A program made the translations under genes and the position numbers. A stretch of 64,000 nt of DNA from an uncultured archaeon (GTDB taxonomy: Archaea; Thermoproteota; Nitrososphaeria; Nitrososphaerales; Gagatemarchaeaceae): positions 960,001 to 1,024,000 of the forward strand of contig CAWFOU010000007.1 in assembly GCA_963817525.1 (NCBI GenBank), given 5' to 3'. Positions 24,140-41,897 of this stretch are shown in pieces (the stretch's first letter is position 1; each line of letters opens with the position of its first letter). The notes under the pieces were generated by a model. The model was given only the letters and a program-made list of their open reading frames with translations, had not been told where the DNA came from and did no database searches.

Positions 24140-24165
24140 TGTGGACCGGGGGGGACTCGGACCCC
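24140..24165. repeat. att core, copy of tRNA-Ala 3' end
   Basis: 26 bp identical to 41107-41132. Confidence 0.93.
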
Positions 24166-24288: not shown

Positions 24289-24333
24289 CGAGCCCGACGG
24301 GACCCGCCCCTGAACAGGTTCTCAAAGTGGATT
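24289..24333. repeat. 45-bp direct repeat (copy at 26209-26253; partial copy at 27561-27581)
   Basis: 41/45 identity; the reverse complement contains a tRNA-like 3' end CCCGTCGGGCCCG. Confidence 0.85.
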
Positions 24334-24494
24334 GCCGCGGAGCAACCAACCAGGTTCGAATCGTCCAGGGGAGATTTTGAAATGACTAGTTCACATATCG
24401 AAATAACTAGTTCAACAATTCCTTGACAGCGGCCTCCGCGCCAGAATATCATACTAAACAGTTAATTATTAGGCAAAGCAACCCTAACCTCGCA

Positions 24495-25253
24495 ATGACA
24501 ACTCACATGGAACGGTACCAAGGTAAAAAAGTCGTGATCACTGGCGGCACCAGCGGCAGCGGGCTCGCCACGGCGAAGATGCTCCTCGATGGGGGTGCGC
24601 GTGTTCTGGTGACGGGGCGGTCGCACGCCGGCCTGGAATCGGCGCAGAAAGAGATTGGAAAGGACGCCATCGTGGTTCCCAGCGACGCGCGCTCGTTGAA
24701 GGACATCGACGCCCTCGCCTCTCGGGTGAAGGCCGAGTTCGGCACCTTCGACCTGCTCTTCGCCAACGCCGGATTTGCCCTCTTTGCCCCTCTCGAAAAC
24801 ACGACCGAGGCCATGTACGACGAGATGTTCGATCTGAACGCCAAAGGACCGTTTTTCGCGGTGCAGAAGCTCGCGCCGCTGATAAACCGGGGGGGCGCCG
24901 TCGTCCTCACGACCTCCATCGCAAACGTCAAGGGAAGTCCCAACCAAGCGACCTACGCAGCGTCCAAGGCCGCGCTGCGCTCATTTGCTCGCGTGCTCGC
25001 CGCTGAGCTTCTGCCTCGGGAGATTCGCGTCAATGCGGTAACGCCCGGTCCCATCGACACGCCGATCATCGGCAAAGTGTTTCCCGAGAAAGGCGTGGCC
25101 GCCCATGTCAGGGAGCAGGCGATCGCTACTAATCCGATGAAGCGCTTTGGGATGCCGGAGGAAATTGCGAAGGCCGTTCTCTTCCTCGCATTCGACGCGA
25201 CCTTCACCACCGGTTCCGAACTTCCGGTCGATGGCGGTGCGTCGCAACTCTGA
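24495..25253 (+). CDS. SDR-family oxidoreductase
   Basis: VITGGTSGSG, FANAG, YAASK, VNAVTPGPIDTP, VDGG. Confidence 0.95.
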   Translation: MTTHMERYQGKKVVITGGTSGSGLATAKMLLDGGARVLVTGRSHAGLESAQKEIGKDAIVVPSDARSLKDIDALASRVKAEFGTFDLLFANAGFALFAPLENTTEAMYDEMFDLNAKGPFFAVQKLAPLINRGGAVVLTTSIANVKGSPNQATYAASKAALRSFARVLAAELLPREIRVNAVTPGPIDTPIIGKVFPEKGVAAHVREQAIATNPMKRFGMPEEIAKAVLFLAFDATFTTGSELPVDGGASQL

Positions 25254-25525
25254 AAGCAGTACGCGAAATGCATCGACACTTGATCTGATGAGCCAAGTGC
25301 GTTGACGGCACCGGTGAGTCACCCTCAACGAACTCGGCAATCTTGTAGGCCTTCCGGCGTTTTGCGCCGACCGGTGACGAGTGCGATCGAATGTTCCATG
25401 GGCGCCTCCGTGGTAAACGGTGAAGGTCGAGTCCTGAGGCCCCGCGAGGCAGTGTCGGCTTGCTAATTACGAACTATTCGGTTTTTATATCGGTGCGACG
25501 GCCTTGTCCAGGAGATTTAAACTAA

Positions 25526-26158
25526 ATGTTGCAAAATGACGCCAGGCCGCGTGGACGGCCGCGCAGCTTCGACGAGAGGTTCGCGCTGGAAAAGGCGATC
25601 CAGGTGTTCTGGTCGAAGGGCTACGACGGAGTGACGATCGACGACCTCGTCGCAGGGATGGGCGTGGGACGGCCGAGCCTGTATTCCGTCTTCGGAGACA
25701 AGCGGACGTTGTTCTTGCGCGCCCTTAGGGCGTACGCAGAGACGAAAGGGGCTCTCGCTGCGAAGGCACTCCTCTCGCCGCGCACTCTTCGCGACTCGCT
25801 CGCCGCCTTCCTGAGGAACGCCGTAGAAACTGCGACCCAGGAGGGATCCGCTCGGGGATGTCTTCTCGAGTGCGTCGCGCCGCTTGTGAACGATGCTGAG
25901 GTCCGGCAGTTCCTACAGAACGCGGCCGCTCACGCCGTAGGACTAGTGGAAGGTCGTTTCCGGGATGCGATCAGCGCGGGCGAAATCCCGTCCGACTTTC
26001 CTGTGGCCATCCGCGCAAGCCAGGTCGTTGATTTTGCTCGTGGCCTTACCATGGGTGCGCTGATAGGCACGCCGCGCAAGACGCTTCTCAGGGATGCCGA
26101 GGAAGCGGCCGACTTGGTGCTCCTGCCGCGGCGTGTAAATGCGGCGCCAGAACGTTGA
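25526..26158 (+). CDS. TetR/AcrR-family regulator
   Basis: RGRPRSFD..FWSKGYDGVTIDDL..SLYSVFGDK; GCLL. Confidence 0.95.
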   Translation: MLQNDARPRGRPRSFDERFALEKAIQVFWSKGYDGVTIDDLVAGMGVGRPSLYSVFGDKRTLFLRALRAYAETKGALAAKALLSPRTLRDSLAAFLRNAVETATQEGSARGCLLECVAPLVNDAEVRQFLQNAAAHAVGLVEGRFRDAISAGEIPSDFPVAIRASQVVDFARGLTMGALIGTPRKTLLRDAEEAADLVLLPRRVNAAPER

Positions 26159-26294
26159 TGACGGCTGGGTAGCCATCGCTCGCAAGGCGGCCGGCCCCGG
26201 AATGGTAGCGGGCCCGACGGGGCCCGCCCGTGAACAGGTTCTCGAAGTGGATTCCGGGAAAGTTAGCTCGCGGATCTGCGCGGCGCCAGTTCGG

Positions 26295-26951
26295 TCAGGC
26301 CGGTGATTCCTTCAGGACTTGCGCCAGTATGCGTCGCTCCGCCTTTATGCGATGCACCACCAGCGTGGAGCTTCGCATCCCGAGTCTCCTCCCGAGCTCG
26401 TTAGAGCTTATCCTCTTTGGAAGGTCATAGTATCCAAGGTTGAAGGCAGCGATTAGGACCTTTCTTTGCTTCTCCGTAAGATTGGCTAGAGGCGAAGTCA
26501 GGGAGAATCTCGCATCTCCAAGAGAGATCACCTTGTATCGCATGCCTGTCTCGTCGACGATCTTCCGAAAGCGCTTAACCTCATTCACATTCCCTAGGAA
26601 TGTCGCTCTAATCCGTCCATCTCTAATCTCAAACGGGAGGGTAAGGTATCCGCCCGTCACGAACATCTTGGGCGTCGGACCTTCTGAGCCGTACTTTCTT
26701 CGCAGGAAGTAGATGTGCGCTCCGCCTTTCTCTTCCTCCAAGTGTTGGGCGACGGTGGAGTCGTCTAAGAGTACATCCTCAAGCTTGGTTGCGCCTCCTT
26801 TGAATTTCACCCGGCATATCATCGCGACCTCGTCCGGTTCCTCCCTTAGGAAGCTGACGACCTCAAATAGCTCGATTTTCCTTAGCGACGACTCTGCACC
26901 CATGAGTCTACCCAGTTCTTCCGTGGTTGACTCCAGCACGAGCCTGCGCAT
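26295..26951 (-). CDS. Bacterio-opsin-activator-like (HTH-10) regulator
   Basis: LTEKQRKVLIAAFNLGYYDLPKRIS..KAERRI. Confidence 0.9.
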   Translation of the reverse strand: MRRLVLESTTEELGRLMGAESSLRKIELFEVVSFLREEPDEVAMICRVKFKGGATKLEDVLLDDSTVAQHLEEEKGGAHIYFLRRKYGSEGPTPKMFVTGGYLTLPFEIRDGRIRATFLGNVNEVKRFRKIVDETGMRYKVISLGDARFSLTSPLANLTEKQRKVLIAAFNLGYYDLPKRISSNELGRRLGMRSSTLVVHRIKAERRILAQVLKESPA

Positions 26952-27046
26952 GCAAAGACAACGACAGTGCGGGAAATATCAATCTTTCTAGCACGCTAGC
27001 ATATTAGCTACAACACTCTTATGAGATTCTCTAATATTTCGAAACA

Positions 27047-27439
27047 ATGACTGCGGAAACCAAACTCGTGATTCGCCCCCAGGGAATCCTGATCGCCTGT
27101 GTGCTGATGATTGTGTTTGGCATCGCGGAGGTTGCCACAGGCTTCACCGGTCATTTTCTCGGCGGCATTTCGGTTGCCACGTCGACGGAATACACAATCG
27201 CAGCGGCCGCGACCGGTTCCTGCTACAGCCTGGCTGGTCTTTTCATTCTAACGATGAGGAAGCGGGGCGCGGCGCTCGGCATCGCCTTTCTCTGTGCTGA
27301 ACTCCTCGGACGGGTCTACCTTGTCTCGACCGGTCTCTACCCGTTCAGCGGAACTGATGAGAGTGCGGTTATCGCGGGAAGCATAATCGCTGTACTCTTC
27401 GCACTCTACATTGGACTGAGGTGGAATAGATTCAGGTGA
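27047..27439 (+). CDS. Small 4-TM membrane protein
   Basis: Hydrophobic ORF divergent from the HTH-10 regulator. Confidence 0.75.
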   Translation: MTAETKLVIRPQGILIACVLMIVFGIAEVATGFTGHFLGGISVATSTEYTIAAAATGSCYSLAGLFILTMRKRGAALGIAFLCAELLGRVYLVSTGLYPFSGTDESAVIAGSIIAVLFALYIGLRWNRFR

Positions 27440-27695
27440 CTCAAATCGCAAAACTCGAGACGGTCCGACGTCCTGGAATGGCCTCTGCGTCTCAGGTCTG
27501 CTCCGCAATAGCATAATTCGGCCTCTTTCTGACAAAACAAGCTCAGAACAGGCCTTTTATTAGCGGGCCCGACGGGGCTCGTCACCTATAGGTGGCGGAC
27601 CCGAGGAGGACCTGGAGGCTTTTATGCGGTCTAGGATATCCAGGAGTCCTCGCCGAGTGGAGTAGCATGTGGGGGGAGATGAAGGAGGGGAAGCT

Positions 27696-28406
27696 TCACG
27701 TGCGGGAGCTCAAGCACTTCCACGACAGACTAGTAGCCTCCGCGCGCTGAGCCTCAAGGTATTCCCTGATGTATTCGCACGCCTGCTCGGGGATGAAGGT
27801 GAAGTAGCTCCTCTTGCTCTTGCTGATCGGCCTGCGGATGACGAGCTTGGCGGGCACCTTCGTGAACGCAGCGCTCTTTTGCGCAATATGGAACTCCAGC
27901 TCCGGAAAGTCGCCAAGCTTCAGGCCGTCGGCACCGTAGATGGTGCCCATCACTTCGGGGCGTATCCCCGAGAACGCGATTAGGGAGCATGCCGCCTTCG
28001 CTCGCAGGTCGGCGTGGTTGAGGATCCTGTTCAGCTCGTCCGGAGAAGGCGTCTTCTCGTTCTCGTACTTGTTCGGGGTGTATGGGATGCGGATCTTCTT
28101 GGTGACGACGATGTCGTTGAACGAGAACCACGACTTCAGCGCCTTGATGTACGACTCGATGAGGGTGCCCGCGTTCCCCCTGGCTTCGAGCATCGACACC
28201 ATGTCGATGAGGAACGAGGTAACCTCCTTGGGGTTCTTCCTGGCCAGGTCGGAGGGGGTGGTGGCGTACTCCCTGCAGATGTTCCCTATTCGCCTGAAGC
28301 AGACGGAGGCATACGTCTGAGAACCTCTCTTGGCGTTCTCGTACCAGCGGAGAAAGGTCTCGTCCTCCTCCAGAAGGTGGACGTAGGGCGATCTCTTAGG
28401 TAGCAC
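27696..28406 (-). pseudogene. C-terminally truncated tyrosine integrase
   Basis: Homologous to 39620-41041 (SPY.H.L.EDE.F.RW, NKYENE, SGIRPEV, DGLKL.DFP); ends before the RxxF/GH/Y catalytic motifs. Confidence 0.88.
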
Positions 28407-28638
28407 AGCATGCTGGTGCGGTGCGGCATATAACGTCTGGGTCCAGACCCGGGGAAGTGTGGACCGGGGGGGACTCGGCCGATTATTCGTCTGAGTCTTC
28501 GGCATCCGATGCCCAAAGACCCATCGCTCGCAATTATATCTAGAGCCTGAGATAAAAAGGTCACGGTCGCGGATTCTGCTTGATTAAGATACATGGATTC
28601 CTAAATATTGATAAGATGCGACCAGAACATTCGTCTCG

Positions 28639-29187
28639 TTGTCTCAACGAAGGGAACGAATTAGGGCGGGCCTTAACGTTCCTCACGTTGAGCAAGGCGA
28701 AGAGGAATATTACTGCGTCCCTGCGTGTATCAGCATGGTAGTTCGGTTCCACGTTGAGACTATGGGGGCGGAAATACCGAACCCTCCTGTTTCCGAGCTA
28801 GCGAGCGCTATGGGAACGGACGCATCAGGCACTTCTCTTAACGACGTTGTGAGGGCCAACCGGACACTTCGGGGCCGTTCTCACTTCTTGGAACTTAAGC
28901 CAAGAAGGAACTGCGAGTTTCGGGACATCAAAAAGCAAGTTCAGGAAGAAGGAAGGCCCGTTATAGCATGGATTAAGCCGCACAGGGAAGACCGAATCGG
29001 GCACTCAGTAGTCGTCAAGGAAGTTGACCCTTCGGGGTTAAAACTGACTATTGATGACCCTGCTAGAGGCGAATGGGTGTTAGAAGTGACCGAGTTCCTT
29101 CGGGTTTGGGGAAACTCCCACTACGTTTTAATCGAGGCGACGGTGGACAACAAGCCTCCGCAATCGGATTTACGTGAATTTGAATGA
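28639..29187 (+). CDS. C39-like cysteine peptidase
   Basis: VPHVEQ..YCVPACISMV, GRPVI, GHSVVV, IDDP (Q-C-H-D). Confidence 0.85.
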   Translation: MSQRRERIRAGLNVPHVEQGEEEYYCVPACISMVVRFHVETMGAEIPNPPVSELASAMGTDASGTSLNDVVRANRTLRGRSHFLELKPRRNCEFRDIKKQVQEEGRPVIAWIKPHREDRIGHSVVVKEVDPSGLKLTIDDPARGEWVLEVTEFLRVWGNSHYVLIEATVDNKPPQSDLREFE

Positions 29188-30110
29188 TGAAAGACGCGAC
29201 AGAAGCCATCGAGCGCTACGTGGACAACACGTATGGCGACCTGATTACCACAGGGAAGCCCTTACATTACAAGAGCCGAGGCTGGGTCGCCGAACTCAAG
29301 TCGGATTATCCACGCACGATTAGGGACGATAAAGACCCGCACTCGACCTTCGTTAAGTTCATCACGCTGAGAGAGCTGGGGGAAGTCACGTTGTCGGATA
29401 ACAACGAGATAGAGGGAACTCCCAGAAAGGAACTCGTTGAAAGGCTCACATCTTCCCTAACTCAGTGGAGGCAACTAGTCGAGGAAATCATACTCAGCAC
29501 TTCGTCGAATAGGCTTGCTAAAATTGGGCGACTCAAGGACACCCTGAATCCTATAGTTCTTGTCGTTGACCACTTCTCACGTGAAGGGGTTGACTTGCTC
29601 TCCTACGAAGAGATTAGGAAAGACCCTCGCTCAAAGAAGATGCTCCGTTGGCTCGAATTCTTAGAGCAAATCAAGCTAGTAGCGAAGAAAGACGACGGAT
29701 TCACCTATGGGAACAAGTTCAGCGAGCTGGAGAAGCAACTCGGCCCGGGAGAGAACTTGACCGACACGGTAATCTCCTATATCATGCAGAACTACTACGC
29801 CACGATGCGCCAAGCCCTAGAGATATGGCGCTTCGACCCGTATCTTCACATGGAGACCTGCTATTTCGGCCCGTCACTCCAAGCCGGGAGGCTTCTATAC
29901 AGAAAGGAAGCGTCCTTGCTCGCACTCTATCACAAGTGGTATCAGAAGCAATCTCCGAACTACAGGATAAGGCCCATACTTGACCAACTTCAAGAAGTGG
30001 GTTTGCTAGAGAAAGAAGGCGAGTATTGGGTTGGCTCGAAAGACATGTGGAAGACTCTCGCCCCGCTGAAAGAGAAAGTTCCGCAAGAGATAGCTCCGCT
30101 GAAAGCGTGA
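29184..30110 (+). CDS. Hypothetical protein, possible winged-helix repeats
   Basis: ATGA overlap with the peptidase; LEFLEQIKLV and LDQLQEVGLLEKEGEYW wHTH-like segments. Confidence 0.75.
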   Translation: MMKDATEAIERYVDNTYGDLITTGKPLHYKSRGWVAELKSDYPRTIRDDKDPHSTFVKFITLRELGEVTLSDNNEIEGTPRKELVERLTSSLTQWRQLVEEIILSTSSNRLAKIGRLKDTLNPIVLVVDHFSREGVDLLSYEEIRKDPRSKKMLRWLEFLEQIKLVAKKDDGFTYGNKFSELEKQLGPGENLTDTVISYIMQNYYATMRQALEIWRFDPYLHMETCYFGPSLQAGRLLYRKEASLLALYHKWYQKQSPNYRIRPILDQLQEVGLLEKEGEYWVGSKDMWKTLAPLKEKVPQEIAPLKA

Positions 30111-30514
30111 TTAACCAAATTAGGCAGTGGGAAAGGTTGAGACTCAAAGCAACCCAAATCGTCATAACTATCGTAGTCATTGCGCTAGTGGGCGGCGGCG
30201 CAATTCTTCTTTACGATGAGACGTCGGGGCCGTCTGTGAGTTCCAGCGTGTCCACAAATGCTAGCTTGGTAAGCGAGCTGGATTGCTTTGGAAGCAATGC
30301 ATATACTACTGTCGCGCTCCGTGTAAACTCAACCTCAACCTCCACCTCTATCACGACTTATTCGGGACCTGGCGAGATGGAATTTGATTATCGAACTAAT
30401 ACGACTGTGGCCGCGCCTGTCGGTACCGTAGTAACTACAACCACTACTTTCGCTTCCAGCTCGGGCAACGTGGTTTCAGAGTGGGAAGCCGTAACCTGCA
30501 CTTACGTGAAATGA
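30107..30514 (+). CDS. Membrane-anchored Thr/Ser-rich protein
   Basis: GTGA overlap with the previous stop; N-terminal TM. Confidence 0.65.
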   Translation: MINQIRQWERLRLKATQIVITIVVIALVGGGAILLYDETSGPSVSSSVSTNASLVSELDCFGSNAYTTVALRVNSTSTSTSITTYSGPGEMEFDYRTNTTVAAPVGTVVTTTTTFASSSGNVVSEWEAVTCTYVK

Positions 30515-30526
30515 CAAGATATCGAC

Positions 30527-30853
30527 TCATCTAGGCTTCTTGACGAGCCTCTTCTTGACCCGGTTCTCCCACTCATGATAGTCAATCAGGCCGCGCTCTT
30601 CTAGCAGTTCGGCGAGAGAGGTTATCATGTTGTCCTGCATGTCAAGCTCGCCCGCGAGGTTATCCGTTGAGATCGACCCGGCCTTCAACGGTCGGCCTTC
30701 TGCGGCCCCTAGATACCCCTGCATGGTGAGATACGCGATGACGATGTTCCTGATTACTTCGGAGTCTCCGTCGCCAATCTTTCCCTTCATCTCAGCGTCG
30801 ATGATTGCCCATAGGCCTTCTGGAAGAGTGACTAGCGCCCTTCTCCGAGGCAT
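30527..30853 (-). CDS. Ribbon-helix-helix/CopG-like regulator
   Basis: MPRRRALVTLPEGLW..DSEVIRNIVIAYL; TGATG coupling to the transposase stop. Confidence 0.75.
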   Translation of the reverse strand: MPRRRALVTLPEGLWAIIDAEMKGKIGDGDSEVIRNIVIAYLTMQGYLGAAEGRPLKAGSISTDNLAGELDMQDNMITSLAELLEERGLIDYHEWENRVKKRLVKKPR

Positions 30854-31731
30854 CAGGCCCTTACCTCCACTTGGACCGCCCCGGCCTTCTCCACGACCTC
30901 TTGAATCGTCTTCTCCGCCGTCGCGTTCTGAATCAGTTGCTTCCAGCCTTTCATCTCTATCCCTGCCGCCTGCGCGGGGGTCTTCCCGATACTTGAGTGC
31001 GTCCGACAGAAGTTGTAGTTCACGACGTAGCCTTCGAGAAGGTTCTTGGGATTCTTCAGGCCCCGCATCGGCTTCACTCTGTCCTTGAGCGTCCCATGAA
31101 CTCGCTCCACTATGTTGTTGGTCTCCCTCGCTCGAATCCCGACCCTTCTCACCCACTCGACCTTGTTCCCCTTGTATCGGGTGTAGAAGACTTTCTTCAT
31201 CGCCTCGTCGTATGCGAAGGAGCCGTCGGTGTAGAAGGCCGTCGGCCTCTGCTTCTCAAGGGCCTGTGTGAAGACCTTGATTGCATCCGCGCTCGTCCGC
31301 GAGTTGCTAACCATGCTTGCGACTATGAACCGAGTGTCTTCGTCGATGGTCTCCCAGAACCACTTCTCTTCTCCGCCGACCTTTATCGCCGTCTCGTCGT
31401 GGTGATACTTGCCTCCCAACTTGGGCGCGAGGGTCTTCACGAACTCGCTGACCATCTCGCCATACTTAGAGACCCAATACCAAACCGTAGAGGCGGCAAC
31501 GGTCTCGCCGAAAATGTCTCCGAGCTGTCTCTGAACCTTGCGAGTGGAGAGACCGTCATAGTAGAGGTTCAGCGCCGTCACGATGACATGCTCGTTCACC
31601 CTCATTCGAGCGAAGGAGACATGGTTATCGTAGAAGTGGTGAGAGCAGTTCTTGCACTGGAACCTCTGGACCCCCATCTTGACCCCGTGTTTCACGACTT
31701 TTTCCGACCCGCAGAACTTGCATGCGTTCAT
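30853..31731 (-). CDS. IS6-family DDE transposase
   Basis: CKFC..CKNC Zn finger, HHDET, IDEDTRF, YTDG, NNIVERVHGTLK, YNFCRTH. Confidence 0.93.
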   Translation of the reverse strand: MNACKFCGSEKVVKHGVKMGVQRFQCKNCSHHFYDNHVSFARMRVNEHVIVTALNLYYDGLSTRKVQRQLGDIFGETVAASTVWYWVSKYGEMVSEFVKTLAPKLGGKYHHDETAIKVGGEEKWFWETIDEDTRFIVASMVSNSRTSADAIKVFTQALEKQRPTAFYTDGSFAYDEAMKKVFYTRYKGNKVEWVRRVGIRARETNNIVERVHGTLKDRVKPMRGLKNPKNLLEGYVVNYNFCRTHSSIGKTPAQAAGIEMKGWKQLIQNATAEKTIQEVVEKAGAVQVEVRA

Positions 31732-32256
31732 TTGCCAACAGGGTGTATATTGGCATTAGACCTATTTATATCCATTGTATAGCCAGTTGATATCCATGTA
31801 TCTTAATCAAGCAGAATCTCATAGTTCGAGCTGCCGTGGTCGAGACGACGCCCTGGAAGAAGGGCCGGAAGGACTGACGAACCGCTAACCAACACGCATC
31901 TTAGCGAAACCAACTACATCCTTACCACGCCGCAATCCAACTGAAGAGCCGTGAAAGTACTAATTCTTCATTCGCCCTAGCCGTGGTAACGGTTGACCCA
32001 GTCATTCACAGGGGTCGTCCGGCCTTGGGTCGGTCCGCCTTCTAAGCAAGTATCCCGTTGGCGCGAGGCCACCACTCGCTTGCGAATCCAGCCGATTGCA
32101 CTTGTATTACATTGTAAGCCATTGCTATATTAGCACGGGCATCACAAGAACTTGCGATGGGCTTTCAGAAGTTGCTTGCTGCGTTCCCTCTAATCCTCCT
32201 GTCGATTGGGATGACGAGCATTCCGATTGCAGCCGGCTTGACGACAGGATTTCGAT

Positions 32257-33300
32257 GTGGTGTATCCAGTCCCGGGTGGAATCTTGGACGGTAAACGCAC
32301 GCTAAGAAATGCATCGGTATGCGTATTGCTTTTGCTCATTGTGATCTCTCCAACTGCAATTATGGCCTCCGGCGACTCAACGAATGCAACAATGACCGCA
32401 AAGGAATACGCAGCGTACATGAATCAGACCCCTACCCCGGGTCCCGGATGTTGGGAGAGTAACTATCCGAACACAACTTGGTTGTCGGTACCTTGCAGCC
32501 AGCCTGACTACCCTGTTCCGACTGTCGGTGGTGGAACGGACGACTATGCCGACTACTCAGGCACGTCAAATGTTGGATGGGCACAAGGCGACTTTTCGAG
32601 CGTATCCGGGATAACTACAGAGGCCGACAGCGGCAATCCTTGCAGCAATTCGAACGGCACGGGACATTGTTCAGACTATTACAGTCTCCAACTGAACACC
32701 AACAGCTGGACATGCACGCCTCCCAGCGGTCATTCGACGACGTGCTGGGAGCAGTTCGTCTACACTGGCGCTAAAACTGTTGGAAATGTCGCGGTCTGGT
32801 GGTACCTTCCGGGTTATCACGGTACTTGGAATAACTGTCCAACTGGTTTCTCACAACCAACGGGTTACCCGAACGATTGTACTGACACCACCAACATTGG
32901 CGTTACACACGCGGACCCGCCAACGACGAAGCTTGGGTCCATGACACTTACCGGTCAGGCCAACTATGAGGGCAGCGGAGATGATGAAGCCTCAATGTGT
33001 GATGGAAATGGTTGTTACGCCGCGACCACCACGGGGTCTATCCTTGGGCTGTCTAGCAACTGGACCATAACTGAATTTAACGTACTAGGGTATGGAGGCG
33101 GGACTCAGGCACAATTCAACACGGGGAGCTCACTTACAGCAGAAATCTTCGAATATGACCACAATGGCAACATGATATCCCCAACATGCACGACTAGCAT
33201 TGGGTCAATAGTTACCGGGGAAACAGCCAACCTAAGTTTGGGTACTTGCACCGCCGTCTCTCCTCCGCTGGCGCACATCTCCTTCACTGAATCACACTAA
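32257..33300 (+). CDS. Secreted Cys-rich protein, thermopsin-like motifs
   Basis: Signal peptide; YSLQLNT, CWEQFV, EFNVLG, TGE; homologous to the N-terminal domain of 47736-50846. Confidence 0.75.
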   Translation: MVYPVPGGILDGKRTLRNASVCVLLLLIVISPTAIMASGDSTNATMTAKEYAAYMNQTPTPGPGCWESNYPNTTWLSVPCSQPDYPVPTVGGGTDDYADYSGTSNVGWAQGDFSSVSGITTEADSGNPCSNSNGTGHCSDYYSLQLNTNSWTCTPPSGHSTTCWEQFVYTGAKTVGNVAVWWYLPGYHGTWNNCPTGFSQPTGYPNDCTDTTNIGVTHADPPTTKLGSMTLTGQANYEGSGDDEASMCDGNGCYAATTTGSILGLSSNWTITEFNVLGYGGGTQAQFNTGSSLTAEIFEYDHNGNMISPTCTTSIGSIVTGETANLSLGTCTAVSPPLAHISFTESH

Positions 33301-33341
33301 AACATTAATAGCGATAGGATGTATTGCGCCGTGAAAAAACA

Positions 33342-33926
33342 ATGGCCAACGGCAGAAAGGCGCTCGCGCTTGTCGCGATTGTGATTCTGGTTGTAGGCGC
33401 CCTCAGCGTTTACTCCATTGTGGCGACGACCAAGTCGGTCGGACAAGGAAAGACAATCTCGTCGCTTGAATCGACGCTGAGTTCGATGGATTCACATCCG
33501 TTCATTTCTGTGAGCACTACAACGATCACCCTTTCTTCGACGGACACTCGACTTCCTTCTTTCCCATGGAACAGCAGCGCCGCGCAATATATGGCCGGTG
33601 CGAACTTTTGCAATGCCGGTTATGAGGGAGCTTGTTTCTCTAGCGCGTTCAGTAATGCTTACGTGTTCACTTGCCTCAACCAAGCCGCGACTCCACAGGG
33701 GTGCACGGTACGAATGAACGCGACCAACTCGATATCCTTCGTCGTCGTCACGGTCTGGTATCCTTACTACAACTCGACTGCGGGTGCGCCCGCTTGGGCA
33801 GATTGTGCTTGGAATAATCCCGGAGGAGGGGGTCCCAGCCAGTTCTATGCTGCGTTTGCATCCTACTGCTTCAAATTAGGTGGAAACGCCTTCATACTTA
33901 CCTCTCCACCTCTTCCCACAGCTTAG
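33342..33926 (+). CDS. Membrane-anchored Cys-rich protein
   Basis: N-terminal TM; NAYVFTC..QGC..YPYYNST..WADC..YC; homolog of 50848-51405. Confidence 0.75.
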   Translation: MANGRKALALVAIVILVVGALSVYSIVATTKSVGQGKTISSLESTLSSMDSHPFISVSTTTITLSSTDTRLPSFPWNSSAAQYMAGANFCNAGYEGACFSSAFSNAYVFTCLNQAATPQGCTVRMNATNSISFVVVTVWYPYYNSTAGAPAWADCAWNNPGGGGPSQFYAAFASYCFKLGGNAFILTSPPLPTA

Positions 33927-34123
33927 GGACCTTGGTGCTGTTCTCCATCACCTTGAATTCATGGAAAGCCCTTTGTATTGCAAATATAACGAGTCCAAGC
34001 CGACAACTCTAGGCTGAGACTCGTGAAGATATTGCGGAAGGGCAATCGTGGCTCTTGGACATGCGTCCCCCCTCGTATAGGCGCTGAAGTATCCAAAAGT
34101 GATTTTGCCTTGAGAAGGACTTG

Positions 34124-34672
34124 CTATTGGCCTTGCTTGGAAAAGCGAATCTTCAGTATGTTGCCCTTGACCTCTATCTGGAGTTTCCCTCTCGACAGAA
34201 CTTCGTAGGCCCCCGAGATATAGCTCTTCAGAAAATAGGACCACTTCTCACCGTACCCGTGGCGCAAGGTCATTCGTTCTGAGTTCTCGGACACGTTTCC
34301 TTCGACCGTGAACCACCCACCTACCTCCGCAAGTATGCTCACCAAGAACTCAACGAACGTCATCTGGCAGCCTGCGCTCTCCAAAAGTTCGAGCACCAGA
34401 GAATAGTTCTTCTTGCCCAGCGCGAACCCGTCCACTTCCAAGGAGTCGAGGTTCGCCGTGCTCATTATCGAAGCAAAGGTCTCACAGCCGAGCGCGATCC
34501 TGCCCAAGGCAGGAATCAGTGGATCGACCTTCAACGCTCTGGTCAGGACTTGCGCCACGTACATGTTTTCGCTGACATGAAGCCGTCGTGCAGTGCGTGC
34601 AAGCTCGAGTGTTAGACGCTCGTCAAGCCGGAACGCCTTGACTTTGGTATGGCTCGCCGTAGCCATTTCCAT
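34124..34672 (-). CDS. Hypothetical protein (RHH-like N-terminus, V4R-like C-terminus)
   Basis: KVKAFRLDERL..VSENMYVAQVL; LRHGYGEKWSYFL. Confidence 0.7.
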   Translation of the reverse strand: MEMATASHTKVKAFRLDERLTLELARTARRLHVSENMYVAQVLTRALKVDPLIPALGRIALGCETFASIMSTANLDSLEVDGFALGKKNYSLVLELLESAGCQMTFVEFLVSILAEVGGWFTVEGNVSENSERMTLRHGYGEKWSYFLKSYISGAYEVLSRGKLQIEVKGNILKIRFSKQGQ

Positions 34673-35345
34673 GAAAGAAACAGAGGAATCTCAATGCAGG
34701 TTCTATTTAGACTTGCCGTATTCACCGCAAAAATACAGCTTGGTGAACATTATTGCGTGAATCGCAACCGCGTTCCAATGTCACATTTCCTACCAGCAGG
34801 ATACCCAAGGTCGTCTTCACGAGCGTGCGCTCTATTATCTCGTCGGGTGATTTGGGCGATTCGAGAGGGGCATAGGTCGCAGGAAGATTTAAGGTTGACT
34901 GGATGAGTCAGGAAACTTGCGCAATTATCGTCTGGAAAGGTAACGACCCTAAACCCAACGAGGGCGTAAGAAGAGGAGACAACCTCATTGATTTTGTCAT
35001 AGGTTAACAATGCTGAAGAATAAAAATTGCGGTAAGCGTTTACCGTTATGAAGTTCCACGGTCAATATTCAGCTTCTGACGCTCATTTTAGCGACATTTC
35101 CATCACGAACTTCGGAACGGTAAACGTGTACAAATTGCGGAGTTCTTTAGAGTTCCCACGCTAGAGGCTCGCGGTTCCCGTGCAACAGCGAACGTCTGGC
35201 AAGTACTCTCCTAGAATCTTCCTCTGTCCTCCTGCTCAGCTTTTCTGCGTCGGCGGCTCCGGCTTACGCGAGAATGAATTGCGTCCCTTCTGGGCGCCTC
35301 GAAGGTATCTATCCTTTTGACAGTGTGTGCGCTCCCTGCCAAAAC

Positions 35346-35480
35346 CTAGGAGGCGAGCTTCCTGCTCCTCATGGCAAGATAGCCAGTTGCGATGGTGAAG
35401 ATCACGGCGACTACCGCTACTCCATACAGTAGGCCCGAGCTCACTCCTGTGGAGGATGTGGACGTGATTGTAGTTGCCCT
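35346..35480 (-). pseudogene. Orphan C-terminal membrane-anchor fragment
   Basis: ATTITSTSSTGVSSGLLYGVAVVAVIFTIATGYLAMRSRKLAS* with no upstream body. Confidence 0.6.
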
Positions 35481-36417
35481 TCCAGGTCAGCCTTCACCTG
35501 GAGAATGGTTTCCTGGAGAGGCTAATGGCAAGGCGGGCAGCCTCTGCCATCAGTATTGACCTGGAAATCGGTCCAAAAAACACACAAGGGGGATGGTATT
35601 AACTAACCCGCAACTCTCTACCGTCCTCTGTCTCCGGCTTCGCGTCATTGGCGCTATCGCAAGCCGATCAAGCTATGGTCGATTTGCTCATACCCGCATC
35701 AGAGGCATGTGATGCCCACCTGAGCGAACCTCTTACGACGCGTTCGAGTGCCTTGTGCCACCATCCACAACCATCCGCGGCTGGGACTAAACTGAGACCA
35801 GACTCCTTACCACGACACGCCAGCTCATTTCTGCCGGGCAGGGACGGATGTGCTTCGACTCAGATGAGCTTGTCCTCAGCTTGGCGAGCGCCCGCTCCGT
35901 CCGATTGTTGGCTTCGTGGCTGACGACCAGGACCATCGAGGTACTCGAGGGCGATAGCTACTTCCAAGTTGAAGAAACCGCGGACGCCAGGGCAGTGCCC
36001 CCTAAGGCTCATTGTCAGGGCGTCGAGGTCGACCGGAGACTTGGCCATCCTCTTCGAAAACCGATAATGCAACCCGGGTCCAACGAATCTCTTGCCCGGC
36101 TCAGCGTGCAAGGGCCTTTCGGTCCACAGTCGTTCCTCAGAATGCAGCAATCGCGCAGCTCTGCCGCTTGGGCATAGCCGAAGCCACTGCCTCTGGGACG
36201 GCACACTCCTACTGGAGTGGGCCTCTGTTTTTGTTTTGGGGGGGTTACTTTTTGCTAAGAATAGCAGTGGAGAAGTAGGCGGGTCTATTTAACGCGGCAA
36301 AATCGGGACCATTCCTATCGCGTTTTCCATAACCTCGGACACAGCCGAACCTAGCATACCTTGAGTTGAGAGCCAGTCAAGGCCTAACGACGACGCAAAA
36401 GCGCCGTTATCGAAGGC

Positions 36418-36780
36418 AAAGCGGACATCTTCAGGGGTCTGGACGGCGCCAAGGCGGACATTCGGGTCGAAAGTGGACATCGGGAGGCGGTTCTGACGGT
36501 GAATGTGGACATCAGGGGTGCCAAAAACGGGTCGCGGTTGCAACATCCATGTCCACCTTCGCGCGCCCAGGGGCGGCAAATGTCCACCTTCGGGCGGTCG
36601 GCGAGGGCGGAGTGGTCGTCGATGTCAACCTTGAGATCCAAAGGCTTGAGATCCAAGGGCCAGGCTTGACATTTTGGGCTCCAAGGTTGACATTTGTGGT
36701 TCGAAGTGAAGGACAGCTTCACGTGTCCACCTTGCCCCGGTAATGGGCGTGCAATGTCCACCTTCATGGATGTGGACATG
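36418..36780. repeat. 12 copies of a 12-bp motif AAGGTGGACATT in both orientations
   Basis: Copies at 36418, 36451, 36470, 36502, 36548, 36579, 36621, 36662, 36683, 36722, 36753, 36769. Confidence 0.85.
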
Positions 36781-36817
36781 GGTCGCTTCGGGGCAGGAGC
36801 CAACCGAGGGGGCTGCT

Positions 36818-37337
36818 AATGCTCGACCCTCGAGCATTATGCATTTGGAGTAATGCGCAACCCTTGCGCACTAGCGCCTTCATGGCAATACGCAACCCTT
36901 GCGCATTAGGCAACCCCGTCTTCTCGGGAAACGCATGATTTGGCACGTGAGGAATGTCTGTGGGACCTGCGAGGCTTCTCGAACGCACCCGTTCACGACC
37001 AATGCACAACCCTTGTGCATTAGCTCGCTTGGGCAAAGGCACAACCCTTGTGCATTGACCAGTCCGAGAGGTTTCACCCCGGCCTCCGCAAAGCTGTACG
37101 CCAAGACCCGTTCCACTATGGAGCGTAACTTTTGAAGATCAAATCGGGCGGGTCCGGCAGTCGCATCATATCATGGGGCTAAGGGTGCTAGAGCTCCCCG
37201 TTAACCAGGAGGTGCAGGATTTGGTGGATACAGGGGAAAATCGATGACTTGTACGAGACACTCACAATTCTGCTCACGGCTGATGCCCAACCCTTGGGCA
37301 TTGCGGCGCATGGGATAATGCCCAAGCCTTGGGTATT
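36818..37337. repeat. 21-bp palindromes AATGnnCAA-CCC-TTGnnCATT at 34-35-bp period
   Basis: Copies at 36818, 36852, 36887, 37001, 37036, 37282, 37317 (plus 38787 and 38822). Confidence 0.9.
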
Positions 37338-37734
37338 GGCTAGCCCTATACGGCCACCGCCCACGTTCCGCCGATGGTAGGGCCAATCCTAAAGCATCCT
37401 CTTGAAGGGCGACGCCCCGCGCAGCTTTACCTGCCGATCGAGAAGCAGCGTGCCAGCGTCGACGTCGAACCGGCCTATCCGCCAAAGGCCAGTGCTCTTG
37501 ATGAGGCGTGCGCGAGCTGAGCGAGAGGTTCGCCTCGCGAGAACCCTATTTTCAGTTCAAGCACTAAAGGCGAAAAGGGTGCGACTGCCGATCTCTCGAT
37601 GAAAGCGTACGATGTCGACCTTCCCGGTGTTCTCTGAAGAAGACAGAAACTGTCGCGAGAGCGAAAGGTGGCGTAGGAACCGAACCCCGAAGAACGATTA
37701 GCTTAAGCCCGATTCGTTCCAGGTTACCGCGCAA

Positions 37735-38193
37735 TTGTCCGGGGATCTCAAATCAAGAGTAAAGTTGCCTGAAGGGTTCAGATTTCTGCGCGAGGGCGAC
37801 ATAGAACGACCATTTCGGACCGGCGACAAAACGATGGACAAGTATGCGCTCAGAGACTACCACGCTTGGAGCCTCCTGCCCAACGAGCTCGTGATCCTGT
37901 ATGAGGTCGCAGGTGATGTTGCGGGCATAATAGAGATGACGGTCGACGAAGACCACATAATGATCGAGATGGTGGCGCGGAACACCCTAGTTGCGGCTTC
38001 TGGCGTTGGGACAAGACTCATGAGCCTCGCTGAAAATGTCTCGAGGCAGCTGGGCAGGAGCGAAATCCGATTGGAATCCCTTGACGGCGTGGTTGCGTGG
38101 TATGACGGGCCTCTGGGGTACGAAGAGTACACCGAGAGATTCTACGATCCTGAGTTCGGCTGGCTGACCCCGAAGAGGAAGTTCATGCGGTGA
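37735..38193 (+). CDS. GNAT-family acetyltransferase
   Basis: IEMVAR..GVGTRLMSLAE..IRLESL..VAWY..LGY. Confidence 0.8.
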   Translation: MSGDLKSRVKLPEGFRFLREGDIERPFRTGDKTMDKYALRDYHAWSLLPNELVILYEVAGDVAGIIEMTVDEDHIMIEMVARNTLVAASGVGTRLMSLAENVSRQLGRSEIRLESLDGVVAWYDGPLGYEEYTERFYDPEFGWLTPKRKFMR

Positions 38194-38410
38194 CCTTGGC
38201 CTTCTGCCTCATCTTGCCTATGACCTTTCGCGACACAGCGTAGACGCCGGTATCTGGGTCGGACCTCACGATGTCCAGATAGTGCTGGACGACCTTGTGC
38301 TCGCGCAGGTAGTTGTCGATCACGCGGGACTTGTTGACTCCCTGGGCTATCGCCATGCTCTCCAGAGCGTCATCCAGCTCGTCAGTCAGCGAGATTGAGA
38401 TTTTCCTCAT
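38183..38410 (-). CDS. Ribbon-helix-helix protein
   Basis: MRKISISLTDELDDALESMA..VNKSRVIDNYLR; ATG at 38410. Confidence 0.85.
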   Translation of the reverse strand: MRKISISLTDELDDALESMAIAQGVNKSRVIDNYLREHKVVQHYLDIVRSDPDTGVYAVSRKVIGKMRQKAKVTA

Positions 38411-38786
38411 GCTACCACGGTCATACTCTGGTAGCAGAGCGCTATATAATCTTGCCGGGAGTCTCTTCCGTTGATTCCCGAATGGACCTTGGCTGAGGCC
38501 AGAGATTCCTTTGCCAAAGAGCCGAAAGAAGAGCAGCCGAGGGAGCCAAGGGGCAAACCATCGGAGAGAGTGTTCTCGAAGGTACTCACAGCAGAGAAAC
38601 ATCGACAACTTTGGGAAGACTGCTTTCAGCGCCCAACGAGCTGTGTCCAGATTGACTCCGCGAGGGCTGCGCCAAGGAAGGGTCTGGCTGAGTACCCCTG
38701 TTTACGAAAGCGAAGATGGGCCTTCCTAGCTTCTAGTCGCAATCTTTCTCGCCTCGTTAGACGCCCAGAAAGCAACTCCTCAGACT

Positions 38787-38842
38787 AGTGTGCAACCCTT
38801 GCATATTAGCGCCTCTAGGGCAATGTGCAACGCTTGCACATT
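38787..38842. repeat. Further pair of 21-bp palindromes
   Basis: agtgtgcaa-ccc-ttgcatatt and aatgtgcaa-cgc-ttgcacatt, 35 bp apart. Confidence 0.85.
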
Positions 38843-39152
38843 AAGCTCGCATGGGCTCATGAGCAACCATGAGCTAATGAGGGTGATTCGCAAGCAGCCA
38901 AACGTCTCGCGAGGAAGCCAGAGGCCGAGCCAAGGACTCGGGAGGGAAAATCGGTCCAAAAAAAATAATGAGAGGAGATAAGAGAATATCCGCAACGAGT
39001 CCGTGCGACCATTTCGACTCCCCCAAAATGAGCGGCCTCGACAGCCGCCGCTAGTAACGGTCGGTCTCCGATTCGTCGGTTTCGGTCAGTTCAGAGAGAA
39101 AATAAATTTAGACAGCATCAAACACCACTGGAATATTTAACGGCCCACTGTC

Positions 39153-39283
39153 AGCTTGCCAAGCCTCCCACTAGGTTGCCACTCAAAGTCCTCCATTTGG
39201 CAACCTCATGACTCATTTTGGCAACCTGTCTCCTCGATTTGGCAACGTTGAATGGCAAGGTTGCCAAAACTAAATGGCAACCT
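39153..39283. repeat. Iteron-like TTTGGCAACCT repeats
   Basis: Direct copies at 39196, 39217, 39238 (21-bp period) and 39273; inverted copies at 39153, 39173, 39258. Confidence 0.85.
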
Positions 39284-39399
39284 GGGTTATCCTCCCGAAA
39301 TGGAGGAGACAGCCCAGAGCTGTCCCACTACCTGTCGAACTTTAGGAGTTAGAGCCTCTTGTTAAAAGCTCCAGACCACAGGGAAATCAGGAAATCGAA

Positions 39400-39618
39400 A
39401 TGGACTCCCGTAACGATGGCTCTGTCGACCTGCGACCATTCAAGGAGAAGCTAAAGAAAAGACTGCCATCCGAGAGTTTCGTCCTGATTGACCTCCTCAA
39501 CGAGCCGGATTCGATGCCGTCCACCCGGGCCGAGGTCCTGATCCCCCACTACCTCCAGAGACTGGAGAGAGAGCTTGAGAAGTACGAATCGAAAGGGCCT
39601 CTCGTCTTGAAGGCCTGA
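39400..39618 (+). CDS. Small hypothetical protein (possible directionality factor)
   Basis: 72-aa ATG ORF convergent with and abutting the integrase stop. Confidence 0.7.
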   Translation: MDSRNDGSVDLRPFKEKLKKRLPSESFVLIDLLNEPDSMPSTRAEVLIPHYLQRLERELEKYESKGPLVLKA

Positions 39619-39619
39619 C

Positions 39620-41041
39620 CTAGGCCGTCCTCAGCCCTATCACAACCTTCTCATCGGGCAGGTCCCGCTTATAGTCCCACCCCTGCTCTATCCACTGCTC
39701 CAGCTCGCCGATGGGAACGACCTTCTGCGTCCCCTGCTTGAGCCCCAGCATCTGTTTGGACTTTTCGTGGATAAGCTCCTGCAGCTTCTCCAAGGTGAGT
39801 TGCGTGACGTCGCCCAACGCTTGGATCTCCGCTTCGGTGTACCCGAACATCTTCAAAGCCTCGACCCTCGCGGTGTTCACAACCTCGTCCCTGCTGATCG
39901 TGGGCTGGGCGAGCGTCTCGAGGTGCTTCGCGGCGGCCTGGGAGTAGGCTTGCCTCATCCTCTCCGCCACCTCCTTGGGCAGCCCCTTGTTCACGCTGTA
40001 CACCGACTCGATGTTCCCCACGTGCCCCATCCAGAACTCCCTCCACTCCCTCAGGATCAGCCTCTCGTACTCCGCGTTCATCATGCAGACCTCGAAGTAC
40101 CTCCTGAGGACGTACGGCCTCCAGGTGAAACCGGCGGCCACGATTGCCTGTTTGAGGCCGACGCAGACCTTGTTCGTGCTGATGTAGCTAGACTTTTGGT
40201 TCTTGATGGCCCCTATGAGCGGAGATTCGGGCGTCAGCTTCTCTCCCGGTAGGCGCACCTCCTCTAGGACTCCCACCCTCTCCCTCCCGTGGGACCAGGT
40301 CTTCCTGGTGTACACCTTCGTCCGCATCCTCCACTCGAGGTAGTTCTTGAGGTACTGACAGGCCTCCGGGGGAAGGAACACAAAGTAGGTGTGCCCCGCC
40401 TTGCTTATCGCCCTCCTGCACACCACCTGGGCGGGCGTGTTGAGGAAGGAGACCGTCCCTCCCACCGCGTTCCCGGCCCCGTCGAGTAGGTTCTCGATCT
40501 TGAGGTCGGGGAAGTCGGCCAGCTTGAGCCCGTCGTCCCCCACCATGTTTCCCTGCACCTCGGGCCTGAACCCGCAGAAGGCGATGAGGGAGATCGAGAC
40601 CTTGGCCCTGATGTCGGCCACGTCGAGTATCCTCCTGAGCTCCTGGCGGGTGGGAGGCACCTCGTTCTCGTACTTGTTGTAGTCCGAGGCGCCGTAGATC
40701 CTGATGCTCTTGGGCGTCTCCATGTCGTTCCAGATCATCCAGCTCTTGACCGCCTTGACGTAGCCCTCGATGCCGGAGCCCTTGATCCCCTTCTTCTCAA
40801 AGTGGGTGATGAGGTCGTGGAGGAAGAACTTGGCCTGCTTCGTGTCCATGGTGACCAGCTCCTTCGGCGTGACCTTCAGCTCCTCGCAGGCGTAGGAGGC
40901 CTTGCGGAAGTAGACGGAAGCGGTCGTTATCGAACCGCGCTCCAGCGCCTCCACCCACCTCCTGAAATTCTCGTCCTCCCCCAGATAGTGGAAGTAGGGC
41001 GACTTCGCTAGACTCAGACTCCTCATCTTTCCATTTCTCAC
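39620..41041 (-). CDS. Tyrosine recombinase/integrase (intact)
   Basis: GFRPEV (R), PYVLRRYF, FWMGH, VYS (Y); adjacent to the att site and tRNA. Confidence 0.93.
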   Translation of the reverse strand: MRNGKMRSLSLAKSPYFHYLGEDENFRRWVEALERGSITTASVYFRKASYACEELKVTPKELVTMDTKQAKFFLHDLITHFEKKGIKGSGIEGYVKAVKSWMIWNDMETPKSIRIYGASDYNKYENEVPPTRQELRRILDVADIRAKVSISLIAFCGFRPEVQGNMVGDDGLKLADFPDLKIENLLDGAGNAVGGTVSFLNTPAQVVCRRAISKAGHTYFVFLPPEACQYLKNYLEWRMRTKVYTRKTWSHGRERVGVLEEVRLPGEKLTPESPLIGAIKNQKSSYISTNKVCVGLKQAIVAAGFTWRPYVLRRYFEVCMMNAEYERLILREWREFWMGHVGNIESVYSVNKGLPKEVAERMRQAYSQAAAKHLETLAQPTISRDEVVNTARVEALKMFGYTEAEIQALGDVTQLTLEKLQELIHEKSKQMLGLKQGTQKVVPIGELEQWIEQGWDYKRDLPDEKVVIGLRTA

Positions 41042-41108
41042 CTGTTTGTTGCTTTTGGTGAGCGACAGGCGCTTTAAGGCGGGGCGGGGACTCAGACGAA
41101 TAATGGTG

Positions 41109-41219
41109 TGGACCGGGGGGGACTCGGACCCCCGACCTGTCCCAATCTGGACTCTTGGTTTGCCAAGGGATTGGACGACGAATAGTCGTCTCTATCCTAC
41201 CAAACTAGACGACCGGCCC
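41109..41219 (-). tRNA. tRNA-Ala(GGC) with two introns (27/28, 21 nt; 37/38, 16 nt)
   Basis: GGGCCGG/CCGGTCC-A stem with G3:U70; both introns form BHB motifs; 74-nt mature cloverleaf. Confidence 0.9.
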
Positions 41220-41417
41220 TCGGGGTCGTCTACAATAGAGCCGTTAAAAGAATTTCAGAATTCGACTAGTTTGCCGGACTTTCAGGAAGCTACCGTGTGC
41301 CAGCAAAGGCGCAACCCAACAAGGCATCGAGTGGCGAGTCGACCCGGATAGAATACCTGAACACCGTGACGCGTGGTCCCTTACAATCAGCAGGCAGATA
41401 AGGGCGCTTTCTAGAGA

Positions 41418-41897
41418 TCAGAGCTCGTCGATGACACGGAATGGCACAGCCGGTTTTTGCCCGATTACCTCGACGACTTCTGTCCACACGACTTCCCTGA
41501 TGCCGTCCATCGCCTTCAGAATCTCCTGCATCTCCAGGATTTCCGAGTTGCCTTTCACCACCGTCTCCACCTTCAAGTCAATCGTCTGCTCCCCTATGCT
41601 CCTGCCGACGTAGACGACGTCGTCCCGCTTGAGAAGCTCTTCCGCAATCTCCGTGGTCTTTCCATGCTCTGTTGCAATCAGGAAGTCCACCTTCCGCCAG
41701 CCGAACTTCTCTAAGTCCATGGAATAAGTCACCTTGAGAAAGTCCGCCTCCAACCTTTTCCGTCTTCTTTGGACCGTCGTCGCAGGTATCCCCAGCTTCT
41801 TTGCTATCATCGCTGAGGTACGATGCCCATCAGGCGTAAGGATGATCTTCAACAGCTTTCGATCGACCCCAGACAACGACCCAGACCTCCTAGCCAT
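41418..41897 (-). CDS. Lrp/AsnC-family regulator
   Basis: Paralog of 42-515 (VVYVGRSIGE.TIDL). Confidence 0.85.
   Translation of the reverse strand: MARRSGSLSGVDRKLLKIILTPDGHRTSAMIAKKLGIPATTVQRRRKRLEADFLKVTYSMDLEKFGWRKVDFLIATEHGKTTEIAEELLKRDDVVYVGRSIGEQTIDLKVETVVKGNSEILEMQEILKAMDGIREVVWTEVVEVIGQKPAVPFRVIDEL

Follow-up and report, generated by a model that had tools for sequence, protein, structure and literature searches.

What can an integrated element still do when it has an integrase and a dense set of repeats, and no recognizable gene for replication or transfer? The question is raised by a 64,000-nucleotide stretch of an uncultured soil archaeon of the Gagatemarchaeaceae, order Nitrososphaerales (the window, positions 960001-1024000 of contig C7 of assembly G000), in which an element of 12.6 kb lies integrated at 28457-41127; coordinates of the element are window positions throughout. 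G000 is a metagenome-assembled genome (MAG) of 2.82 Mb in 15 contigs, with a high GC content (0.61), an estimated completeness of 95% and an estimated contamination of 8.75%, and we compared it with a family set of 97 genomes in 10 genera, labelled G000 onward. Our best reading is that the cis-acting module of this element has outlived its genes. With about even confidence, we regard it as a reduced, non-autonomous derivative of the integrative and conjugative element (ICE) lineage of the family, comparable to a bacterial integrative mobilizable element. The repeat-rich 3.8 kb would then be the leftover control region of that lineage, and the operon behind its promoter box would have shrunk to one broken gene, encoding a zinc-ribbon protein that we call ZnR. 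The iterons would be putative binding arrays for element-encoded DNA-binding proteins, with ZnR as the first candidate, the palindromes would act as hairpins or cruciforms, and for any replication or transfer the element would depend on a complete relative to provide proteins in trans, for example the ICE-like element found at C7:1.22 to at least 1.28 Mb. The element probably cannot act alone, because the genes that lie beside the repeats in its larger relatives were lost.

With its own intact integrase, the element is predicted to be capable at most of integrating and excising. Homologues of 461-469 aa (58-80% identity, labelled Nitrososphaerales or Nitrososphaerota by their sources) match 99% of the length of the integrase, P0001, which keeps R159, K214, R313, H340 and Y348, which are invariant or near-invariant columns in 24 homologues and form the R..K..R..H..Y set. 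The protein itself had no match in Pfam, NCBIfam or PHROGs; with the profile of its family, archaeal XerA structures were matched (4a8e, E 7e-7; 5hxy, E 0.002). Exact copies of the 22-nt att repeat are limited to attL and attR in the whole assembly (Table 1). In the relative G034 the target site is empty: a match to 24049-24165 abuts a conserved 120-nt segment matching 41101-41219, that is, the tRNA-like gene. Because of this empty site and of a third att copy further left, the whole of 24161-41105 is inserted DNA in two tandem units, and our element is the inner unit of an array of two elements at the 3' end of the tRNA-like gene. No integrase was found at the corresponding loci in the three relatives examined. 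An acceptor stem and a T arm appear when the target segment is folded, and its identity in six relatives of the same genus is 88-96%, yet neither ARAGORN (intron options included) nor Rfam called a tRNA on 41106-41225, a miss that the long insertion probably explains; we name the target tRNA-like since fold and conservation fit while both programs made no call. The original prediction, that the element has an intact integrase and att sites, thus stands.

So does its statement that no Rep, primase, MCM, Cdc6, relaxase, VirB4 or capsid gene is recognizable. We scanned the open reading frames (ORFs) of the element against Pfam, NCBIfam, PHROGs and PADLOC, and none of those tested matched any of these families, nor ParA or ParB; no virus or conjugation hallmark gene, VirB4/VirD4-type ATPase or pilus component was matched within 28457-41127, and PADLOC found no defence system there. 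The only family matches were a C39-like peptidase, an IS6/IS240-type transposase, a GNAT protein and a ribbon-helix-helix protein. The element is thus an integrase-bearing multigene insert in which no virus or conjugation hallmark gene was matched, as in the cryptic integrated elements (CIEs) of thaumarchaea; the VirB4/VirD4-type ATPases that would make it an ICE were found in the separate element at C7:1.27 Mb. According to PMC6563490, many thaumarchaeal CIEs have no identifiable replication proteins, so that their absence here is not remarkable by itself, and CIEs are thought to derive from ICEs by loss of conjugation genes (Krupovic et al. 2019; PMC6563490). The likeness to the thaumarchaeal CIEs and ICEs described there extends to the tyrosine integrase, probably to the tRNA-type target, and to the tandem arrays at one site.

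Of the repeats, we count 27 units plus a few degenerate copies. This agrees with the roughly 28 copies of the original prediction; its three families have to become four, which are related and have in common the loose core GGT(T/G)G..CA(T/A)(T/A) that it had pointed out. The palindrome pattern gives 16 strand matches (nine sites) where 0.73 are expected, and TGGCAACC occurs seven times against 1.43 expected, values reached in 0 of 100 shuffles in both cases. Clusters of at least five iterons in a 400-nt span stand at only four places genome-wide (mean of 0.02 under random placement), and the palindromes of the genome amount to 27 units in seven loci, each locus keeping a period of 34-36 nt. 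Because iteron clusters and palindromes are confined to these few loci, the repeats are not general chromosomal operators; had they been such operators, the original prediction would have been refuted. Its suggestion to look for the motifs in virus contigs gave nothing, with no match in viral_contigs for either the promoter-piece pattern or the palindrome pattern.

The DNA of 35540-37350 is matched in 18 of the 97 family genomes, in three of the 10 genera. It forms a module in which, judging from its motifs, iteron arrays lie behind an element-specific promoter box and are followed by palindromes predicted to form hairpins. The best conserved parts of this module are two non-coding pieces, named the terminator and promoter pieces in Table 1. 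Of the only nine matches that the genome has to the box CCCGYGTTAAAT, nearly all belong to module loci; at C8:20152 the box stands 27 nt ahead of an ATG, a spacing that fixes its reading direction; in the module it would read leftwards into the ZnR operon, which the terminator piece with its T-run would end. Between the two pieces, on the minus strand, relatives encode ZnR, a protein of about 200 aa: its N-terminus is a CxxC...CxxC zinc ribbon, its C-terminus carries cysteines, and the part in between gives weak winged-helix leads. There is no Pfam model for this family, 40 members of which gave only sub-threshold zinc-ribbon and winged-helix matches in Pfam, and the winged-helix leads in the Atlas are weak (scores below 0.9, TM below 0.5 by query). 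At least 155 members are in databases, every one of them unnamed or labelled Nitrososphaerota; among 1.84 billion representative proteins the family has only 49 relatives, and no fused or longer form was found. ZnR is full-length at 15 loci of the family genomes and cut by a contig end at one more. Iteron arrays lie directly upstream of it in 8 of these 16 loci, and beyond intervening genes in two of four further loci examined; in relatives the GGTGACAT arrays often have a period of 21-22 nt. Of 13 metagenome contigs with the promoter piece, 11 have iterons at +117 to +650. At two loci (L001 12186-12450, L020 11160-11300), the iteron field is directly followed by a small conserved ORF (beginning MVQEGHE...) that is preceded by a promoter box of its own; this ORF is absent from the window.

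The genes that the module accompanies when complete point to its origin. In G080, the operon comprises a TFIIB-like gene (E 2e-11), a 164-aa ORF and an ArdcN-like gene with HExxH (E 2.6e-4, below cut-off), followed by ZnR; in complete relatives, the box is predicted to drive an operon of TFB-like, 164-aa, ArdC-like, in some cases PIN, and ZnR genes. All thaumarchaeal ICEs carry TFIIB homologues (PMC6563490), and for this reason we place the module in the ICE lineage. A gene for a VirD4/TraG-type type IV coupling protein (T4CP) lies no more than 4 kb from a part of the module at 10 loci in nine genomes (G096, G045, G066, G049, G004, G051 with two loci, G065, G063 and G000). T4CP genes were found in 12 of 17 module-positive genomes and in 25 of 79 others, counts that yield no statistical test because the genomes are related.

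A larger relative lies in the same assembly, 260 kb away on the same contig. This ICE-like element, a putative ICE, extends over at least 61 kb, from C7:1220262 to at least C7:1281378, where it is cut by the contig end. Its start is marked by a fall in GC from 0.65 to 0.52 and by an att-like site followed by the 50-nt att-adjacent arm of our element (90% identity over 72 nt). At C7:1.27 Mb it encodes a VirD4/TraG-type T4CP, above the cut-offs of four Pfam models, and a weak VirB4-like ATPase, and at C7:1277592-1277736 six TGTTGACAT iterons and the box precede TFB-like, 164-aa, ArdC-like (with one frameshift) and PIN genes. It also has a palindrome pair of the same family and in the same relative orientation as in the window, so that the two elements have in common the att-adjacent arm, TTGACAT iterons, promoter box and palindromes. 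The contig ends where ZnR is expected, a caveat for the statement that G000 has no intact ZnR. ThiF/multiubiquitin and Schlafen-AlbA genes are also present in the ICE-like element, as is a gene for a 391-aa protein whose family occurs in 27 of the 97 family genomes; we dropped a 'ParB-like' label given to this family by eye, which had no Pfam support and whose gene does not consistently adjoin the palindromes.

The module also exists in reduced copies, alongside its complete and ZnR-only forms. In a 'short variant' of the module, the roughly 470 nt between the two pieces consist of remnants of the ArdC-like C-terminus, the PIN N-terminus and the ZnR C-terminus. It is present twice in G000 (on C8 and at C7:142 kb), on contig C2 of G031 and at 7 of 13 metagenome loci (about three distinct sequences), and its TGGCAAC iterons keep constant offsets while the gene remnants are broken in different frames; the TGGCAAC period in sibling loci is 21-23 nt. 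Over eight copies without ZnR, the conservation of the two pieces is 0.92-0.94, compared with 0.82 for the gene remnants. Iteron cores reach 0.85-0.89 and the neighboring spacers 0.78-0.80 (33-91 of 5000 permutations as extreme, with leave-one-out definitions), in a comparison weakened by copies that are related and by repeats that are self-similar and easily aligned to one another. These figures support, if modestly, continued selection on the cis sites in the absence of the genes.

Several points weigh against the element being a reduced derivative served by a helper, in addition to the relatedness of copies in this test. Its loss of genes is explained equally well by simple decay. Three genomes (G031, G033 and G003, completeness 79-86%) have elements with ZnR and iterons in which the query used found no T4CP, and the module therefore lives in non-conjugative elements too. 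The main iteron types of the two elements in G000 are related and yet different, GTGGACAT in the window and TGTTGACAT in the ICE-like element, only three units in the window being of the TTGACAT type. Co-residence of both elements in one cell is not certain, given the contamination estimated for this MAG. Assembled Logan contigs of public runs, mapped onto the element, contained no excision, circle or empty-site joint; the contigs of run X5 span 33.2-40.96 kb without the left part or the flanks, coverage and gaps that prove nothing. Finally, both promoter boxes of the window are off consensus and fall outside the nine matches in the genome. The satellite proposed originally is therefore upheld in part: the module stands beside T4CP genes in nine genomes and an ICE-like relative is co-assembled, but no movement is seen in assembled contigs and the main iterons are different. 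Mobilization in trans by a helper is plausible.

The main rival to our reading, which we consider possible rather than probable, is that of an inert relic that has been decaying since integration and whose repeats persist because too little time has passed. The frameshifts and stops of the ZnR pseudogene, the transposon-like unit inserted near attL, the MITE-like repeat (resembling a miniature inverted-repeat transposable element) at 35339-35474 and the clear degradation of the neighboring element B are all as expected of a relic, as are the off-consensus boxes and the missing joints. A relic would not be expected to have a full-length integrase with its conserved residues and identical att copies. 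Nor does too little time sit well with short variants that keep their layout in about three independent metagenome sequences, in G031 and in two copies in G000, with remnants broken in different frames, or with pieces and iteron cores better conserved than the gene remnants.

The palindromes have retained their ability to pair. In 39 distinct units, 93.8% of 390 cells are paired, and one stem position shows T-A, A-T, G-C and C-G (16, 10, 8 and 4 units) with a single unit unpaired; these figures come from units selected for at least seven of nine pairs, among which neighboring units are duplicates, so the independent events are fewer than the cells, a further point to be held against our reading. 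Two other stem positions show double changes, and for one double change both possible one-step intermediates are present among the copies. The observed covariation was reached in 0 of 500 shuffles. Loop and outer stem are conserved, and the compensatory changes lie mid-stem. Every locus with both features has the CCC loop on the strand of the promoter piece. A protein dimer that reads bases needs no compensatory changes, and for this reason we infer that the palindromes form hairpins or cruciforms. Among mismatched pairs (alignment A6, by eye), G.T is found about equally on the plus and minus strands; with no such strand bias, no transcribed strand can be named and DNA cannot be told from RNA.

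This absence of bias also bears on the idea of non-coding RNAs that start at the box promoters and include the repeats, which seems to us very improbable. A 130-nt stretch after the box (plus strand) is conserved in the short variants (identity 0.92), and there are RNA-library contigs at 35875-36075 and 38428-38720. Against the idea, the 130-nt stretch shows no covariation in its consensus fold, whose covariation term is positive and in which only one of 34 pairs has a double change, and Rfam 15 gave no match at the gathering threshold over the whole window and none at E<=1 over 35400-41600. The RNA library, which may contain DNA, has its other contigs at 32684-32899, 33374-33575 and 40097-40314 and none on 36306-38373, a distribution that proves nothing.

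The arrangement of the iterons invites comparison with replicons. As in the iteron plasmids pSC101, R6K and IncP-1, short direct repeats spaced at about two helical turns, together with inverted copies, lie beside the promoter of a gene for a small DNA-binding protein. In contrast to those plasmids, no known Rep family includes the protein associated with the module, an unwinding element is not seen, transfer-type genes adjoin the arrays and the gene is dead here. An autonomous iteron-type replicon or partition locus, served by a ribbon-helix-helix protein or an unassigned ORF of the element, is in our opinion improbable. Such a locus would fit the TGGCAAC period of 21 nt and its equivalents in siblings and relatives, the direct and inverted units beside a promoter, and two ORFs of ribbon-helix-helix type (one by eye only); a winged helix-turn-helix protein may also initiate replication in a small thaumarchaeal element (PMC6563490). 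It fits poorly with the absence of Rep, ParA and ParB matches, with a GC content that falls to no less than 0.41 over 80 nt (at 39080-39159) and offers no clear AT-rich stretch for unwinding, with the loss of the module's own gene, and with complete relatives in which arrays stand upstream of promoters and beside transfer genes.

Extra iterons are known to titrate cognate proteins in bacterial iteron plasmids, and the integrated iterons could likewise be a decoy or incompatibility array that titrates the DNA-binding proteins of incoming relatives and excludes them. Iteron cores conserved in copies without the cognate gene, and the presence of several such loci in one genome, are what a decoy would leave. 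The same conservation is expected of a satellite, however, and the arrays of the window are smaller than those of complete elements, so that we attach only a slight probability to this role.

Taking the reading of a reduced ICE derivative further, the module could be the cis DNA-processing region (oriT or leading region) of thaumarchaeal conjugative elements, in which the TFB homologue would read the box and ZnR the iterons, and reduced elements would be archaeal integrative mobilizable elements that hitch-hike on a co-resident ICE through common cis sites. We advance this tentatively and think it unlikely. Our element resembles the bacterial integrative mobilizable elements in having its own integrase and att sites, no recognizable transfer machinery, and cis sites, of putative function, similar to those of a conjugative-type element in its assembly. 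The palindromes also recall, by their fixed orientation, conserved loop and outer stem and mid-stem compensatory changes, the oriT inverted repeats, single-strand origins and, near ardC-type genes, leading-region hairpins of bacterial plasmids; in complete relatives they neighbor an ArdC-like gene and a coupling protein. They are unlike bacterial single-stranded DNA hairpin signals in forming arrays with a strict 35-nt period, and neither a nick site nor an HUH enzyme was found. To our knowledge, the existence of a single-stranded DNA stage in archaea is not established. No archaeal conjugative element has a known relaxase or oriT (PMC9905601), and a cis site common to both elements cannot for that reason be called an oriT; a literature search on archaeal transfer origins yielded nothing beyond statements that a relaxase is not known.

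The module, with its iterons, promoter box, ZnR and palindromes of 35-nt period, is not described in the main text of PMC6563490, where 'ArdC' does not appear and 'iteron' is found in the reference list only; no literature pairing 'iterons' with 'Nitrososphaer...' was among the matches listed. Knowledge of thaumarchaeal ICEs and cryptic elements is confined to their gene content. Orientation-fixed iterons and covarying hairpins are a concrete DNA target for asking how such elements are processed, and the module lets one ask whether small archaeal elements parasitize large ones, as is the case in bacteria. Should the repeats be no more than leftover operators, the locus is an ordinary decaying island.

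Table 1. Features of the integrated element and its left neighbor (window positions).
Feature	Position	Strand	Description
Outermost att copy	24139-24160		1 mismatch; left end of the two-element tandem array
Remnant element B	24161-28456		TetR and HTH_10 regulator genes, truncated integrase paralogue; clearly degraded
attL	28457-28478		22-nt direct repeat, 22/22 identical to attR
3.25-kb unit	28571-31818		flanked by 27-nt perfect inverted repeats, near attL
C39-like peptidase ORF	28639-29187		inside the 3.25-kb unit, which also has a 308-aa ORF
IS6/IS240-type DDE transposase	30853-31731	-	inside the 3.25-kb unit
Two Cys-rich ORFs (347 and 200 aa)	32257-33926	+	hydrophobic N-terminus, by eye; no family match
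182-aa ORF	34124-34672	-	N-terminus ribbon-helix-helix-like by eye; no Pfam support
Terminator piece	35546-35623	-	T-run on minus strand; 74-95% identity across genera, mean pairwise 0.94
ZnR pseudogene	35672-36204	-	three frames, two in-frame stops; zinc ribbon (profile positions 1-75) missing
Promoter piece	36170-36301	-	BRE/TATA-like box at 36283-36295, 1 base off CCCGYGTTAAAT; predicted to read leftwards
Iteron field	36419-36780	both	9 G(T/C)GGACAT units (GTGGACAT/GCGGACAT-type) and 3 TTGACAT units
Of these, TTGACAT-type units	36622-36700		3 units
Palindrome arrays	36818-37339	+	7 palindromes of 21 nt, form AATGCnCAAcccTTGnGCATT; 34-36-nt period, CCC loop on + strand
GNAT acetyltransferase ORF	37735-38193	+	converges on and overlaps the ribbon-helix-helix ORF
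Ribbon-helix-helix ORF	38183 to ~38412	-	3' end overlaps the GNAT ORF
Two further palindromes	38787-38844	+	AATGCnCAAcccTTGnGCATT family; 35 nt apart
Miniature second unit	38948-39282		terminator-piece core copy 38948-38963, box-like TATA 39133-39146, 6 TGGCAAC iterons; layout by eye
TGGCAAC iterons	39175-39282		the 6 units of the row above, 21-nt period
72-aa ORF	39400-39618	+	kept together with the integrase in paralogous elements
Tyrosine integrase P0001	39620-41041	-	473 aa, full-length
attR	41106-41127		within the 3' end of the tRNA-like gene with long insertion (41106-41225, -)

The integrase family also occurs elsewhere without the repeats, at both of the related loci considered. Further full or partial paralogues lie at 15818-16009 of the window and at C7:1045985-1046317, C1:1153448-1154743, C7:144749-146088 and C7:691462-693190; such a set of paralogues in one genome suggests many past integrations. 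In element B, the paralogue is an ORF at 27696-28505 (minus strand) whose tblastn match, 27753-28394, covers residues 13-236 of 473, about half of the protein, and two TGGCAACC units stand at 27130 and 27172. On the other side of the tRNA-like gene, the segment 41220-45650 holds about 3.4 kb more DNA before the next conserved flank than G034, G023 and G017 do, including AsnC-type and HTH_45 regulators, and may be another insertion.

The two Cys-rich ORFs look secreted by eye and would be cargo rather than replication genes. The 182-aa ORF has two paralogues in the ICE-like element (C7:1235616 and C7:1244600, 72% DNA identity). No target-site duplication is visible around the 3.25-kb unit, which is much longer than a plain IS6 element. 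A PDB sequence search returned nothing for the ZnR profile or for the 303-aa, 391-aa, 766-aa and 308-aa ORFs. The GNAT and ribbon-helix-helix pair, toxin-antitoxin-like in composition and unusual in layout, recurs near the module in G033 and G031 (L020 6285-7032; L021 12462-13035). The MITE-like repeat has at least 12 further copies on five contigs (76-86% identity), and an RNA-library contig of very high depth (909x) has 34 nt in common with it. Elsewhere in the window, tandem repeats inside long ORFs at 50502-50727 (period 60/120 nt) and 2353-2538 (21/42 nt) probably belong to repeat proteins.

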